A DNA stretch of 32,000 nucleotides from Caldivirga maquilingensis IC-167. Its GTDB lineage: Archaea > Thermoproteota > Thermoprotei > Thermoproteales > Thermocladiaceae. Under the pieces are notes generated by a model. The model was not told where the DNA came from. It ran no database searches and saw nothing but the letters and a program-made list of their open reading frames with translations. Positions 2,797 through 30,747 of this stretch are shown here, one piece after another. Position 1 is the stretch's first letter; each line of letters opens with the position of its first letter. Made by a program: the position numbers and the translations under genes. The stretch is from positions 990,001-1,022,000 of the forward strand of contig NC_009954.1 in NCBI RefSeq assembly GCF_000018305.1, read 5' to 3'.

Positions 2797-2805
2797 TTTA
2801 TATTT
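2797..2805 (-). promoter_or_regulatory. TATA box (AAATATAAA on the minus strand) of the threonine dehydratase transcript
   Basis: Centre at about 2801, which is 27 nt upstream of the GTG at 2774. This is the same geometry seen at other genes in the window. It lies inside the last codons of the uL29 gene. Confidence 0.45.
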
Positions 2806-3151
2806 ATTGCTGGGTAGGTTTAGTAGAGGTACTGGGTTTCGTGACCCTCAGTATCCTTCTTAAGGTTGATTTTTTAATACCCAATTGCATTGAAACCTTA
2901 TCATACGATACCCCCTTCTTAACCAATTCATTTATCCTATTTCTTAAATCATTCAACTCAGTCTCATGCTCAATTGTAAGTATTCTAGCTATTAGTCTCC
3001 TAACGTACCTCATTCTCCCTGGATTATCAACAACACCCCTACCTCTTTGGGTCTCTAGCCTTATTAATTCGCTCCTAAGCTCATTAAGTAGCCTTAACCT
3101 ATCCTCTCTACTCATGTTCTTAAGATCCCTCAACTTAACCTTCTCCGGCAT
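2804..3151 (-). CDS. rpl29: Ribosomal protein uL29 (L29p/L35e) with a 53-aa C-terminal HTH-like extension
   Basis: The N-terminal 62 aa (LRDLKNMSREDRLRLLNELRSELIRLETQ...NPGRMRYVRRLIARILTI) match the uL29 helical hairpin. The tail contains GVSYDKVSMQLGIKKSTLRRIL. Confidence 0.75.
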   Translation of the reverse strand: MPEKVKLRDLKNMSREDRLRLLNELRSELIRLETQRGRGVVDNPGRMRYVRRLIARILTIEHETELNDLRNRINELVKKGVSYDKVSMQLGIKKSTLRRILRVTKPSTSTKPTQQ

Positions 3152-4297: not shown

Positions 4298-5112
4298 CCA
4301 AAAATCCTCCTAAGTGATGATGCGGCATCCTCAGCAGCCTTTAATGGGTCACCGGGATATGGTGGTATTTCAGCGGTTAATGGCCCCCCGTACCCTATTT
4401 CACTGAGTAGTTTCTTAACATTACCCCAATTAACGCTACCTGTTAATGGTATACCGAAAGTACACCTATTGGGTTCAGCTAGAAAATCCTTAGCATGCAT
4501 GGCAACTATCCTATCCTTAAGCGTCATTATCCAATGCTCTGGTAAACTATGAGGTAAAGTATTACCGACGTCTAAGTATGCCCCAATGATTTTAGGGTCA
4601 AGCCCATCGAGGAGCCTCCTCATATCCAATGGGCTGGCGAATATCCTGTTCCAGACATTCTCAACACCAATAACTACACCGTGATCCTCAGCTATTTTAG
4701 CTAACCTAGATAACGCCATCCTGGCCCTTTCAATATGCTCCTCATAACTTAATTCAGTAACTGCAACACCTGGAACCACAAGAAGCACCTTAGCTTCAAT
4801 CAAGCTAGCAGCCTTAGCCTCAGCCTCAAGGACCCTTGAAACCTTCTCAAACTGATCCTCAAGAATCATGTTAAACCTCCAGTAGAGGCCAGTGGCAATA
4901 GTGTATATGCCTATTCCAACACCCTCAGCCGTCTCCTTAATACTACTCCACTTCCTTGAAAAATCAGGCGAGTTTAAGGAATCTAAATCAGTTTCATCAA
5001 TAACAGGTTCAAACAACTCAAACCCAGCCTTTTTAGCATGCCTAAGGGCATCATGTACATTGAGTGTTGGAGGGTAACTCCAGGCATTTACCCCTATCTT
5101 CACAGACACCAT
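4294..5112 (-). CDS. Sugar phosphate isomerase/epimerase (xylose isomerase-like TIM barrel)
   Basis: 272 aa with the alternating beta/alpha pattern of this TIM-barrel family (VIGVENV, HAKD, DVGN segments). Translationally coupled to the oxidoreductase. Confidence 0.75.
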   Translation of the reverse strand: MVSVKIGVNAWSYPPTLNVHDALRHAKKAGFELFEPVIDETDLDSLNSPDFSRKWSSIKETAEGVGIGIYTIATGLYWRFNMILEDQFEKVSRVLEAEAKAASLIEAKVLLVVPGVAVTELSYEEHIERARMALSRLAKIAEDHGVVIGVENVWNRIFASPLDMRRLLDGLDPKIIGAYLDVGNTLPHSLPEHWIMTLKDRIVAMHAKDFLAEPNRCTFGIPLTGSVNWGNVKKLLSEIGYGGPLTAEIPPYPGDPLKAAEDAASSLRRIFG

Positions 5113-5250
5113 ATTTAATTAAAGCTCCTAGTTATTAATAAGCATTATTTCATAGGATTTGAGCTAAACACTATTTAAGCAGGCGTAAATTTAGTTAAAG
5201 TACTATAGTAACTGATAGTTTTAAATTAATGAGTAAGGTTAGTGTAAATG

Positions 5251-5302
5251 ACCCCTGCATGCATCCACACCAGGGTGAGGGCTAATTAGCCCTCACCCTT
5301 TT
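5251..5302 (+). ncRNA. Candidate ~50-nt small RNA (module A): 21-nt 5' tail plus a perfect 10-bp hairpin plus T4
   Basis: GC island in an AT-rich spacer. Hairpin 5273-5282/5289-5298 with loop TAATTA, followed by TTTT at 5299-5302. TATA-like TTTTAAATTAA at 5219-5229 is centred about 26 nt upstream. Alternative reading: a leaderless 13-codon micro-ORF at 5248-5289. Confidence 0.3.
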
Positions 5303-5390
5303 AATGTTATTAAATCATGTTAAGGATTAGTAATCTACTAGTATTTTAATTTTAAATAAAAATAAGTTATATAAAGTAAAACATAGTAGC

Positions 5391-5493
5391 ACAGTTAAGG
5401 AGCCCAAACCTACACGCGTTCATACCATTGAAAGCCGGGGAAACCCGGTAAGTAAATGGTGTGGGTGCGTGCAGGGGGTTAATCCCTTACTGT
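5391..5493 (+). ncRNA. Candidate ~100-nt rod-like structured RNA (module B), family unknown
   Basis: Core helix 5409-5429/5455-5475 has 16 Watson-Crick pairs, 4 G-U pairs and 1 mismatch. Internal loop GAAA/AAGUA. CCGGG/CCCGG stem capped by a GAAA tetraloop (5440-5443). Outer helices 5401-5405/5476-5480 and 5391-5400/5485-5493. All wobble pairs are G-U only on the + strand. TATA-like TTATATAAA at 5367-5375. Confidence 0.4.
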
Positions 5494-5580
5494 TGCCTAA
5501 TTCTTAATGCTACTGTATTTAACTGGTTCTTGGTTAAGAATTATGAATATTTTTAACAGGGTTTACATCATTAATGCGCT

Positions 5581-7878
5581 TTATGGGAATAAGCCTTGAA
5601 GGAGCCAAATCATGTAGAGCGGTATGAAGACTAATGATATTGTGTTAAGTAATTTAATAACAATGTGTAGTGATGGTCCAGCAGTATCTTTTAATGGGTC
5701 ACCAACAGTGTCACCTATGACTGCGGCAGCATGGGTTGATGATCCCTTTCCCCCAAGATGCCCTGCCTCAATATACTTCTTAGCGTTATCCCAAGCCGCA
5801 CCACCCCACATCATGGTTATAGCTAATACAATACCGCTTGCGGTTGCCCCTATTACTAAAGCACCCACTGCCGGTCCACCGAACAGTAATCCTATTATTA
5901 GGGGTGTTAGTATTACTGATAATGTTGGCGTTATCATGTTTCTTAACGCGAATTGCGTACTTATGTCCACTGCCCTATAATAATCAGGTTTCTCAATACC
6001 CCTCAGTATCCCGGGTTTTTCCCTGAACTGCCTCCTAACCTCCTCAACCATGCTCCATGCAGCCTTAGTTACGGCTCTTAAGGCTAAGGAACTGAAAAGG
6101 AAGGGTAACATTGCGCCTATTAGGACGCTTACCAGTATGTCAGCCCTCATTAACATTAGGTGGTTAAGGAGGTAATCCATGACACTTATGAAGCTTCCCA
6201 AGTTGAGTGACACATCAGTGGCTGCGGCCTGTATTACGGTTGGGTTCCTAGCGACATAATCCTGTATGAAGGCTTGAAACAGTAGTAGCGCTGCTAACGC
6301 CGCTGAACCCATGGCGTAACCCTTAGTGAGAGCCTTGGTAACATTACCTATTGAATCCAGTGGATCAAGCCTACCCCTAACCTCTGGGCTTAATTCACTC
6401 ATCTCAGCTATGCCACTGGCGTTGTCTGTTATTGGACCTGCCCCATCAAGGGTCATTATTATTCCAGCTAAGGATAACATACCTAGGGTTGCTGCTGCTG
6501 TACCGTATATGCCGTAGATGAATTTAGCGATGGGAATACTACCTATGGTGTAGTTACTCATCACCACAGGTAATGGTGCGGTCATGCCTAGTGCAAACGA
6601 TGCCAGTAGGGTTATTGCAATAACTATTATTGGCATGAAGGTTGCATTCATGCCTGTTGTTAAACCTTGAAGTATTGTTAACGCTGGGCTAACCCTAGAT
6701 ACCTCAGCAATCTCAATCACGGGCTTAGCCTCCCTGCCCGTGTAGTGGTTAGTCACTAGTACTATTATTATTGCAGCTATTATTCCAGTTAATGATGCTG
6801 TGAAGAAGTAAACCCAAATCTTCGGCATTAGGAGGTAGTATATTAGGAAGAATCCAGCAATAGCGGTTACGGCTGATGCTATCACGCCGTTCCTCAACGG
6901 CTCCATGGGATCCTTAAACTCACCTTGATAAGCCGATACCAAGACCCCTGGGACAGTTGCAATAACCCTAACCGCCCCTGTTAAGAATGGTAGGAATACA
7001 AAGCTCAAGGCCTCAGTAATGGGGTAACCTGCCTCAATTAGGAAGAAGTATACTGTCCAACCAACTATCATTGTTCCAAGCAACTCAGCTGTAACGGATT
7101 CAAAGATATCAGCACCCCTCCCAGCGCAGTCACCGACATTATCACCAACCTGATCAGCTATTACAGCTGGGTTCCTTGGATCATCCTCAGGGATCCCAGC
7201 CTCAACCTTACCCACGAGGTCAGCACCAACATCCGCTGCCTTAGTGTATATTCCACCGCCTATTTGGGCGAATAATGCCGATAAACTAGCCCCAAACGCG
7301 AAGCCCGCTAGGCCATCTAAGATAACCCTTAGGTTAAATGGTGTGGTTGCTCCCTCTACAATAATTGAGTAAACTATGAAGAGTAGAGCCAATGCAAATA
7401 CGCTAACCGATGGTACGGAGAACCCAAGCACACTACCACCAAGTACAGCAACCCTCAGGGCATGTCTCACACCCCTCTTGGCGGCTTCGGTGGTCCTCAC
7501 GTTAGCCTTAGTGGAGGCATCCATGCTTAGAAACGCTGTGGTTAATGATGCTACACTACCTAGTAGCACGGATACTCCAATTAACGTGGATTCAAGAGTA
7601 ACCTCACTCCTTAGCTCAGGGTGCATGGGTAGAACCTTAATACTATAGCCAGCGTAAACACTAAGGGCTACTACCACTGATATCACTGCTGAGAAGAGCA
7701 ATATAGTCCTTATTTGTCTCCTCATGTATGCTTTAGCACCCTCTCTTATTGCATTCCACACGTTAACCATGTTCTCGTCACCAAGCGGCTGTCTCTGGAT
7801 CCATAGGTAAATGAAGATGGAGATAAGTATACCCACCAAGCCTGTTAATAATCCAACCAATACCAGGGGGTTAATCAT
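5581..7878 (-). CDS. hppA: Membrane-bound proton-translocating inorganic pyrophosphatase (V-type H+-PPase)
   Basis: 765-aa polytopic protein with signature motifs GDNVGDCAGRGADIFES and GDTVGDPLKDTAGPSL. Confidence 0.95.
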   Translation of the reverse strand: MINPLVLVGLLTGLVGILISIFIYLWIQRQPLGDENMVNVWNAIREGAKAYMRRQIRTILLFSAVISVVVALSVYAGYSIKVLPMHPELRSEVTLESTLIGVSVLLGSVASLTTAFLSMDASTKANVRTTEAAKRGVRHALRVAVLGGSVLGFSVPSVSVFALALLFIVYSIIVEGATTPFNLRVILDGLAGFAFGASLSALFAQIGGGIYTKAADVGADLVGKVEAGIPEDDPRNPAVIADQVGDNVGDCAGRGADIFESVTAELLGTMIVGWTVYFFLIEAGYPITEALSFVFLPFLTGAVRVIATVPGVLVSAYQGEFKDPMEPLRNGVIASAVTAIAGFFLIYYLLMPKIWVYFFTASLTGIIAAIIIVLVTNHYTGREAKPVIEIAEVSRVSPALTILQGLTTGMNATFMPIIVIAITLLASFALGMTAPLPVVMSNYTIGSIPIAKFIYGIYGTAAATLGMLSLAGIIMTLDGAGPITDNASGIAEMSELSPEVRGRLDPLDSIGNVTKALTKGYAMGSAALAALLLFQAFIQDYVARNPTVIQAAATDVSLNLGSFISVMDYLLNHLMLMRADILVSVLIGAMLPFLFSSLALRAVTKAAWSMVEEVRRQFREKPGILRGIEKPDYYRAVDISTQFALRNMITPTLSVILTPLIIGLLFGGPAVGALVIGATASGIVLAITMMWGGAAWDNAKKYIEAGHLGGKGSSTHAAAVIGDTVGDPLKDTAGPSLHIVIKLLNTISLVFIPLYMIWLLQGLFP

Positions 7879-29949: not shown

Positions 29950-30060
29950 TATAATACATGTTACTTAAGGTATTAAAGTATTGTGGGTGGGTGTTTATTA
30001 GTATACAAAATTAAAATATGTAATGTTAATCTTTAATATAGGGGATTCCATGTATTAAGC

Positions 30061-30747
30061 ATGGTTAAGTGGATGAAGCTTACGGTAATTAATGATAATG
30101 AACCTAATCCACCATTGCTTAATGATTGGGGATGGAGTATACTTATTGAGACTGATAAATGGGTTCTACTGTATGATGCTGACACTGAACCGGGAATCAT
30201 GGAGAATAACATTAATGCCCTGGGTATTGACCTCAGGGGAGTGAATGCCGCATTTCTAAGTCACTATCATGCAGACCACTATGGGGGATTTAGATACATT
30301 GGTGAGGTTAAGAGGGGTCTTGTGGTTTATGTGCCTGAGGAGGATAAGATCTTGGCCAAGTGGGGTCTTAGGCCAGTTACAGTTAATTCACCTAGTGGGA
30401 TTCTTGAGGATGCGGTAACTACAGGTGTTATGAGGGGTATGGGTGTTAATGAGCATTCCCTAATTGTTAAACTAGATGGCTATGGCCCAGTGATTATTGT
30501 GGGTTGTTCTCATCCTGGTATTGATAATATTGTTAAGAGAGTTTATGAAATGTTTAATAGTGTTTATCTAGTGATTGGAGGATTCCATGAACCATTAAGG
30601 CATCAACTTAATACTGTCGTGGAGTACTCAAGATACGTATGTCCAGCCCACTGTTCAGGTGATGATGCTAGGAGTTATGTGAAGAACAATTACCCAGAAA
30701 AATACTGTGGGATTAAGACTGGAGTTAGGCTTAGGTTACCGATGTAA
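30061..30747 (+). CDS. MBL-fold metallo-hydrolase (COG1237-type)
   Basis: HxHxDH motif SHYHADHYGG and later GCSHPG and GGFH metal-ligand contexts. Confidence 0.8.
   Translation: MVKWMKLTVINDNEPNPPLLNDWGWSILIETDKWVLLYDADTEPGIMENNINALGIDLRGVNAAFLSHYHADHYGGFRYIGEVKRGLVVYVPEEDKILAKWGLRPVTVNSPSGILEDAVTTGVMRGMGVNEHSLIVKLDGYGPVIIVGCSHPGIDNIVKRVYEMFNSVYLVIGGFHEPLRHQLNTVVEYSRYVCPAHCSGDDARSYVKNNYPEKYCGIKTGVRLRLPM

Follow-up and report, generated by a model that had tools for sequence, protein, structure and literature searches.

A predicted pair of mutually complementary, structured small RNAs with a bulge-helix-bulge motif, conserved in the archaeal genus Caldivirga

Results

Two structured RNAs in the V-PPase / AP_endonuc_2 spacer

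We analyzed a stretch of 32,000 nucleotides (nt) from Caldivirga maquilingensis IC-167 (contig NC_009954.1, positions 990,001 to 1,022,000; hereafter the window) and describe here two predicted small RNAs, A and B, that share one of its intergenic spacers. The spacer measures 468 bp and extends from the stop codon of a minus-strand V-PPase gene (5581-7878) to a minus-strand AP_endonuc_2 / GFO_IDH operon that starts at 5112. Exact protein matches identified the window V-PPase as ABW01781.1 and the window Spt5 as ABW01784.1. A first-pass annotation, made from the letters of the window alone, had placed two GC-rich islands around an AT-rich stretch in this spacer and assigned one RNA to each island. 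The islands are real features of the composition, with a GC fraction of 0.53-0.58 in both compared with 0.075-0.2 in the spacer that separates them. The A and B genes lie 140 bp apart.

Homologues of both flanking proteins (V-PPase and AP_endonuc_2) led us to orthologous loci in four Caldivirga lineages: the type strain, represented by the window; L082/L094/L102-104; L106/L107; and L083/L085/L092-L097. The survey as a whole comprised Caldivirga loci plus distant homologues of the flanking genes. A block of about 300 bp was kept at the same site in all four lineages. Its promoter regions and RNAs were 62-92% identical, and the remaining spacer was either unalignable or 47-65% identical with many gaps. 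For comparison, V-PPase was 86-92% identical in two lineages and AP_endonuc_2 was 76-88% identical. The pair counts reported below were taken from a single alignment (A5; n = 10 sequences from the four lineages). Hairpin A is misaligned across lineages by MAFFT and was therefore judged by folding each sequence separately.

RNA B is predicted to form a rod of about 45 bp. Its plus-strand fold reached -56.3 kcal/mol (z -6.45), which no shuffle equaled, and the minus-strand fold was weaker (-48.9 kcal/mol, z -4.6). Across the alignment, 98.9% of cells in the rod were paired compared with 37-51% in slid controls, and none of 500 column shuffles equaled the observed score; coming from four related lineages, such pairing statistics are suggestive rather than rigorous. 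The inner 20 bp were paired in every one of the 10 sequences, with seven positions varying on one side only and giving a standard pair each time. These one-sided changes in the arms (C-G/U-G, G-C/G-U, U-A/U-G, and G-U/A-U) produce standard pairs on the plus strand only. Two pairs of the apex stem changed in a compensatory manner, one from C-G to U-A and the other from G-C to A-U.

The first-pass annotation had assigned the structures to the plus strand, and both the excess of G-U pairs and the model scores uphold that assignment. Read as plus strand, B contained 8-9 G-U compared with 0-2 A-C oppositions per lineage, and the helix between A and B contained 1-2 G-U and no A-C. The B covariance model (R1) scored 98-139 bits on the plus strand versus 18-34 bits on the minus strand; one pair in this model was mis-assigned (column 29 with 94, where 95 was intended), which affects search scores but not pair counts. 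We consider it settled that the selected structures are plus-strand RNA. Explanations of the block as an untranslated region (UTR), a DNA site, or an origin are disfavored for this reason.

The AAA bulge, the GAAA / AAGUA internal loop, and the GAAA-capped apex that had been annotated by eye all recurred at the same positions in the B fold. Both strands of a loop-E / sarcin-ricin motif are present at the sequence level, with GAAAG (5430-5434) and AGUA (5451-5454) invariant in 10/10 sequences. The apical loop varied across lineages. It is GAAA in the window, as the proposal of a GNRA cap had stated, but the cap is not conserved and is replaced by UUC(C) or UUU loops in one lineage.

A bulge-helix-bulge motif in RNA B

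The AAA bulge had been noticed on the first pass but not recognized as one half of a motif of the bulge-helix-bulge (BHB) kind. The archaeal splicing endonuclease recognizes a 4-bp helix flanked by two 3-nt bulges, and in pre-tRNA the bulge containing the 5' splice site comes after the exon-side strand of this helix (PMC4090602). The polarity of B agrees with this rule. Its central helix, GCCC:GGGU, consists of 4 bp (three G-C and one G-U) and was present in 10/10 sequences, and the RNAalifold consensus shows the motif. Two 3-nt bulges lie on opposite strands, each 3' of its own helix strand. Their length was fixed in the alignment register in all 10 sequences, while their bases varied (AAA or AGA on the 5' side; UAA, CAA, or AAA on the 3' side). 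Flanking helices are present on both sides: an inner one of 3 bp that resumes with 17 bp beyond a single A-C mismatch, and an outer one whose contiguous run differs among lineages (3-10 bp). The position of the motif is that of the two longest stretches of B that never vary, GGAGCCCA.ACCUACA and GCAGGGGGU.AAUCC.

Everything from the two arms to the loop-E motif and the apex hairpin lies between the two predicted cuts, and so does all of the region complementary to A. Given the conserved BHB, an excised and probably circular RNA would be the most likely mature form of B.

B contains the only BHB in the window with a long inner helix (20/21 pairs), bar one hit at chance level. This second strict geometry, at 30040-30170 (30040/30164), has 16/21 inner pairs, is AT-rich, and spans the start of an open reading frame (ORF; 30061-30747). 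It is probably a chance occurrence, as its level equals that of shuffles and it sits across a coding start.

RNA A and the two promoters

Upstream of RNA A, TAACTGATAG and TTAAAT were unchanged in 10/10 sequences from the four lineages. The TATA-like box lies about 32 to 20 nt before position 5250, which is the spacing found at leaderless protein genes of the window. RNA A had been annotated as a tail, a hairpin, and TTTT. All three parts exist in the window, where the hairpin has 12 bp, folds with -24.4 kcal/mol (z -4.3), and is followed by TTTT at 5299-5302; the TTTT is missing in one lineage. A hairpin of 10-13 bp begins right after the tail in each lineage, despite only 52-65% identity within the hairpin, and its helix is kept by stems that differ across lineages (GGGUGAGGGC, GGGUGGAGACCCC, GGGUGGGGGU, and GGGAUGGGGG).

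The tail of A is identical to the 5' arm of B at 14/21 positions in register. A TAGT(W)TTTAA(W)TT-like string is also common to both predicted promoters (5209-5229 and 5337-5358). Because of the shared promoter string and the tail/arm match, A may have originated as a partial tandem duplicate of the 5' half of B.

B's probable promoter is the AT-rich block that precedes it, which was 84-92% identical to the other lineages, above B itself (74-88%). A TATA-like box with protein-gene geometry had been proposed for each RNA. The geometry holds, but B has two candidate boxes instead of one fixed 5' end, and its predicted start is therefore spread over about 5381-5397. The conserved block is longer than a promoter composed of a TFB recognition element (BRE) and TATA box requires, and it carries T-runs on both strands. 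It may combine a terminator for A, a terminator for the minus-strand V-PPase mRNA, and the B promoter, and may also hold a regulator binding site. An additional inverted repeat (5375-5391 / 5508-5524, 82% complementary) would lengthen the B rod of the type strain by about 15 bp. L082 has a perfect 9-bp counterpart of this repeat (AAGUAAAAC / GUUUUACUU), and the L083 lineage is without the repeat and has a T-run directly 3' of B.

Complementarity between A and B

The tail of A and the 3' arm of B form an inverted repeat that matches at 19/21 positions. As RNA, the two segments give 19 Watson-Crick and 2 G-U pairs, exactly as first counted, and only about 0.01 such matches would be expected by chance in the window. 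The B segment reaches into the BHB motif, sharing nucleotides with the inner helix and with half of the central one. Across the alignment, 97.1% of cells in the A:B helix were paired, compared with 31-63% in slid controls. One pair underwent a double change from G-C to A-U, with C becoming U in the B 3' arm and G becoming A in the A tail. The B 5' arm stayed G at this position and forms a G-U pair, so the nucleotide of the B 3' arm still pairs with both partners. Five further positions changed on one side only, four of them to G-U wobbles (C/U or A/G opposite G or U) and the fifth, at the 3' end of the tail, from G-U to A-U.

The first-pass annotation had proposed conservation and covariation in relatives as a check on the two RNAs. 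Compensatory and wobble-only changes, seen across the four lineages, affect B, hairpin A, and the A:B helix alike. The extended complementarity expected of an antisense small RNA and its target, maintained as both partners change together, is present here at the sequence level.

The A:B duplex had a predicted energy of -45.4 kcal/mol, compared with -25.6 kcal/mol at the next best site in the window. Cofolding at 37 °C gave -85.4 kcal/mol for the A:B heterodimer versus -80.5 kcal/mol for the monomers, a preference of 4.9 kcal/mol. C. maquilingensis grows near 85 °C. With parameters extrapolated to that temperature, the heterodimer had -28.2 kcal/mol versus -17.7 kcal/mol for the monomers (10.5 kcal/mol better), and the predicted excised circle alone had -1.2 kcal/mol. 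The heteroduplex is therefore favored over the monomers, in line with the earlier idea of a bimolecular assembly or strand invasion. Coordinates of all features are collected in Table 1.

Table 1. Predicted features of the A/B locus (window coordinates).
Feature	Position	Strand	Details
Upstream block of RNA A	5209..5231	+	TAACTGATAG, then TATA-like box TTTTAAATTAA (5219-5229)
RNA A, predicted, ~53 nt	5250..5302	+	5' tail, hairpin, TTTT (from fold)
A tail, 21 nt	5252..5272	+	complementary to B 3' arm 5457-5477
A hairpin, 12 bp, loop AATT	5272..5299	+	5272-5283 paired with 5288-5299
AT-rich conserved block	5335..5384	+	probable B promoter; TATA-like boxes 5350-5358 and 5367-5376
RNA B precursor, predicted, rod ~45 bp	5389..5497	+	5' end ~5381-5397; 3' end near 5500
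BHB 5' strand	5397..5411	+	outer helix 5397-5401, central G5402-C5405, bulge A5406-A5408, inner C5409-U5411
Predicted cuts	A5407/A5408 and A5481/A5482	+	inferred from motif
Predicted excised RNA, probably circular	5408..5481	+	74 nt; 77-78 nt in one lineage
B 5' arm	5413..5429	+	pairs with 5455-5471, 17 bp
Loop-E-like internal loop and apex	5430..5454	+	GAAA 5430-5433 / AAGUA 5450-5454; apex hairpin 5434-5449
B 3' arm segment	5457..5477	+	alternative pairing with B 5' strand or A tail
BHB 3' strand	5473..5487	+	inner A5473-G5475, central G5476-U5479, bulge U5480-A5482, outer 5483-5487

Known families, repeats, and phylogenetic range

Neither RNA had been placed in a known family, and our searches agree with this. 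Rfam returned no match at gathering thresholds in the whole 32-kb window, and in E-value mode the locus and two orthologous loci gave low scores only, far below gathering thresholds. None of the archaeal signal recognition particle (SRP) RNA, RNase P types A/M/T, C/D and H/ACA small RNA, or 5S rRNA families included in this comparison was matched. ARAGORN, run on the window and on 19 related loci, called no tRNA. We rejected a tRNA or split-tRNA fragment: the sole GTTCATA-like string is unconserved (GCTCACA), and the A:B duplex is without bulges. A C/D, H/ACA, or K-turn RNA was likewise rejected, as inspection revealed no conserved boxes and the bulges precede C-G pairs, not tandem G-A. The internal loop follows the loop-E pattern and not that of a K-turn.

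Dispersed copies, which would have suggested decayed miniature inverted-repeat transposable elements (MITEs) or insertion sequences (IS), were also looked for. The B covariance model matched one site per locus, and neither the window nor any of 17 related loci held a paralogue. When 241 million metagenome records were scanned with a B-core pattern, six loci were recovered, each of them in the orthologous spacer between V-PPase and AP_endonuc_2. A MITE or IS remnant is ruled out by this single copy. Comparison with phages and plasmids by blastn gave only chance matches to the AT-rich spacer, and pattern scans of viral contigs returned nothing. A 13-codon micro-ORF (5248-5289), raised on the first pass as the alternative product of the locus, is refuted by its non-conservation: one lineage has AAC in place of its ATG, and the reading frame is not kept. 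We found nothing on this locus in the literature on Caldivirga small RNAs or transcriptomes.

At loci of more distant relatives (V-PPase 70-74% and AP_endonuc_2 70-71% identical; L086, L089-L091, L098, L099, and L101), the B model had no match within about 4 kb, and the neighboring genes were different. Within the loci surveyed, the pair thus appears to be restricted to the genus as far as we looked. Judged from these sequence comparisons, the finding is real, and the locus holds a new pair of predicted, structured small RNAs whose complementarity to each other is conserved. The interpretation reached on the first pass is supported, although it was incomplete as to the conserved BHB processing motif.

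Neighboring genes

The closest named relatives of the V-PPase outside Caldivirga are from Fervidicoccus (67-69% identity), followed by Thaumarchaeota/Aigarchaeota (57-59%). No named Thermoproteales relative outside Caldivirga was among the matches. These affinities hint that the V-PPase gene was laterally transferred. The ribosomal protein L29 encoded at 2804-3151 on the minus strand has a C-terminal extension with a weak HTH_SB Pfam match, and is 115 amino acids long versus 112 in another lineage. Downstream of the L29 gene, one Caldivirga lineage has a HEPN / nucleotidyltransferase pair resembling a toxin-antitoxin system (L082 5469-5825; L102 6309-7065), which was not called there in L001, a locus matching the type strain. 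Inside AP_endonuc_2 of L082 (3271-3320, minus strand), Rfam reported a group II intron domain 5 at 25.6 bits (gathering threshold 61), which is almost certainly a chance match.

Discussion

A model for processing and pairing

We propose that A and B would be transcribed independently from the plus strand as a conserved pair of small RNAs. In this model, B is first made as a precursor with a leader and a trailer, and a crenarchaeal splicing endonuclease of broad specificity would cut both 3-nt bulges, at A5407/A5408 and A5481/A5482. The 74-nt core released in this way would next be sealed by RtcB ligase, yielding a small circular RNA. We infer excision by analogy with the SRP RNA of Thermoproteus, in whose precursor a 23-nt leader and the trailer form a BHB that the endonuclease cuts in vitro, the RNA being circular in vivo (PMC4731332). 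The resulting circle would be a dumbbell composed of a 7-nt closing loop (GGGUUAA), a 3-bp helix, the 17-bp helix, the loop-E-type internal loop, and the variable apex hairpin, with the loop-E-type loop as the likely site of protein binding.

RNA A would be the dedicated antisense partner of B, with its 21-nt tail at the 5' terminus and a stabilizing hairpin behind it. The first four C of A pair with G5474-G5477, which would be locked within the BHB of the precursor. In the excised RNA, G5476 and G5477 would lie in the closing loop and G5474 and G5475 in the 3-bp helix, and together they might serve as a toehold. A could then nucleate through its 5'-terminal CCCC, displace the B 5' arm, and dissolve the loop-E motif. 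Full pairing with A is incompatible with both the BHB and the rod, so that A would either block the processing of B or switch the mature rod off. A BHB-bearing precursor, an excised and probably circular rod, and an antisense A together form what we consider the best explanation of the locus, which we hold with slightly less than even confidence.

Several observations weigh against this model. The central BHB pairs never vary, so the case for the motif, which has no covariation of its own, is one of geometry and conservation. Read in strict register, the type strain's outer helix meets an A-C mismatch after only 3 bp, and the minimum-energy fold shows a relaxed motif with a 5-bp central helix and a 4-nt bulge. 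Bare BHB-like geometries also arise often by chance, the window having 219-267 of them on each strand and shuffles about 170. The 3' end of A is uncertain in the lineage that has no T-run after the hairpin. There are only four lineages, closely related and from one genus, and statistics based on shuffling are inflated by their kinship. Finally, ViennaRNA parameters extrapolated to 85 °C are approximate. As to the relaxed fold, published work describes crenarchaeal heterotetrameric endonucleases as accepting relaxed motifs (PMC4090602; PMC5829648; PMC4731332).

Alternative explanations

The main rival is an ordinary pair of linear small RNAs, in which A is a trans-acting antisense RNA and B is a structured target, decoy, or sponge (or the reverse), and B is never cut. 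The BHB-like geometry would then be a protein-binding irregularity or a coincidence. The structural, covariation, and cofolding evidence fits such a pair equally well, and the invariant central helix, the relaxed fold in the type strain, and the chance frequency of bare BHB geometries all speak in its favor. It leaves unexplained, however, why two bulges lie exactly 4 bp apart on opposite strands, with the correct polarity and a fixed length despite changing bases, in the most conserved part of B. Moreover, the endonuclease of the host's order cuts such motifs outside tRNA (PMC4731332). We regard a linear pair as possible but somewhat unlikely.

B could alternatively be a free-standing archaeal intron in a short non-coding transcript, whose product is a ligated exon hairpin with a 7-nt loop (GCCCAAA), or nothing at all, with A as a functionless partial duplicate. 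The BHB geometry suits an intron, as does the resemblance in register between the A tail and the B 5' arm noted above. In addition, archaeal tRNA introns measure 11-129 nt, which includes the 74-78 nt predicted here, and introns are documented to transpose in Thermoproteales (PMC4090602). Against this, clear purifying and pair-preserving selection acts on the rod's inner part, on the loop-E motif, and on the A tail, which would not be expected of a decaying duplicate or a junk intron. There are also no other copies in Caldivirga metagenome contigs or in the window, and the exons are without tRNA features. A free-standing intron is, in our view, improbable.

The block might instead act on the minus strand or as DNA, for example as a V-PPase 3'-UTR or terminator, an AP_endonuc_2 5'-UTR or promoter, an origin-like repeat, or a decayed transposon end. 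It does lie between two minus-strand genes, its AT-rich stretch (GC 0.075) is flanked by the inverted 21-mers, the minus strand also folds at the energy given above, and there is no strong T-run between the V-PPase stop codon and B. Yet only on the plus strand do substitutions in the arms and in the A:B helix keep pairing intact, and the covariance model loses 65-110 bits when scored on the minus strand. Helix sequences change while pairing stays, unlike at protein-binding DNA sites; the block is single-copy; and inspection of the alignment revealed no conserved consensus resembling an origin recognition box. We therefore consider a role of this kind very improbable.

Least credible of all is a split gene whose fragments A and B are trans-spliced, with the 21-bp A:B helix as leader-trailer duplex: C. 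maquilingensis does have split tRNA transcripts, ten in number, which come together by annealing of their complementary leaders (PMC4033280), and the A tail sits leader-like at the extreme 5' end of its transcript, but ARAGORN found no tRNA or half, no T-loop or D-loop motif is conserved, the duplex runs unbulged into hairpin A with no BHB in trans at either end, and the complementary segment lies inside B's own helix instead of forming a free trailer.

Implications

If the preferred model of an excised B core is correct, the splicing endonuclease would also act on a dedicated regulatory RNA, made as the excised and probably circular product of a stand-alone gene. To our knowledge, the enzyme has few substrates beyond tRNA, namely the precursors of rRNA, a small number of mRNAs, and the SRP RNA of Thermoproteus. 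C. maquilingensis is known as the organism with the most fragmented tRNA genes. A more speculative extension is a self-contained two-RNA device, in which the tRNA-splicing machinery would produce a rod-shaped loop-E circle from its own gene, without the involvement of any tRNA, rRNA, or SRP RNA, and a linear opener RNA encoded beside it would unfold it by toehold displacement, the 5' end of the opener perhaps controlling either the maturation of the circle or its protein-binding state. We think such a device rather unlikely on present evidence; if real, archaea would have a first example of a regulatory circular RNA paired with its own antisense regulator. An antisense neighbor that co-evolves with its partner would be a rare archaeal RNA-RNA switch open to direct test, with the genes, predicted cut sites, junction sequence, and competing helices all defined to the nucleotide. 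Should the processing prediction fail, the locus would still represent a well-supported new family of paired structured small RNAs in a hyperthermophile.

Comparison with known systems

Elements of the A/B pair resemble several known systems without coinciding with any of them. The internal loop of B matches at the sequence level the loop-E / sarcin-ricin motif of 5S rRNA, 23S rRNA, and viroids, having 5'-GAA-3' opposite 5'-AGUA-3' within a helix. Unlike in 5S rRNA and the sarcin-ricin loop, its orientation to the hairpin loop is reversed in B.

As in bacterial base-pairing small RNAs and their sponges or decoys, A has a seed followed by a hairpin and U-tail, the site that B offers is single, near-perfect, and conserved, and pairing would proceed by toehold and strand displacement. 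In contrast to the bacterial RNAs, the pair is archaeal and has no known chaperone, the interaction spans 21 bp instead of a short seed, and the partner is a structured and probably circular RNA, not an mRNA. Split and tri-split tRNAs of C. maquilingensis and Nanoarchaeum equitans also consist of separate small RNAs with a GC-rich annealing segment at one 5' end. They differ in that A and B contain no tRNA sequence or trans BHB, their pairing competes with an intramolecular helix, and their genes adjoin instead of being dispersed.

Archaeal tRNA and rRNA introns, excised by EndA and circularized by RtcB, share with B an identical BHB geometry and polarity, a length typical of tRNA introns, and a rod-like stable core, and the host lineage is one in which such introns multiplied. 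The flanks of B, however, are about 20 nt long with their own promoter and belong to no tRNA, rRNA, or mRNA, and the strongest pair-preserving conservation falls in the excised part and not in the flanks.

The permuted SRP RNA of Thermoproteus tenax and T. uzoniensis is a non-tRNA from the same order that carries a leader/trailer BHB, as predicted for the processing of B. It too has a TATA box about 26 nt upstream, and is cut by a heterotetrameric endonuclease and ligated into a stable circle (PMC4731332). Whereas SRP RNA is about 300 nt long, permuted, and has known protein partners, B is predicted to be an unpermuted 74-nt rod with no Rfam match that comes with an antisense partner of its own.

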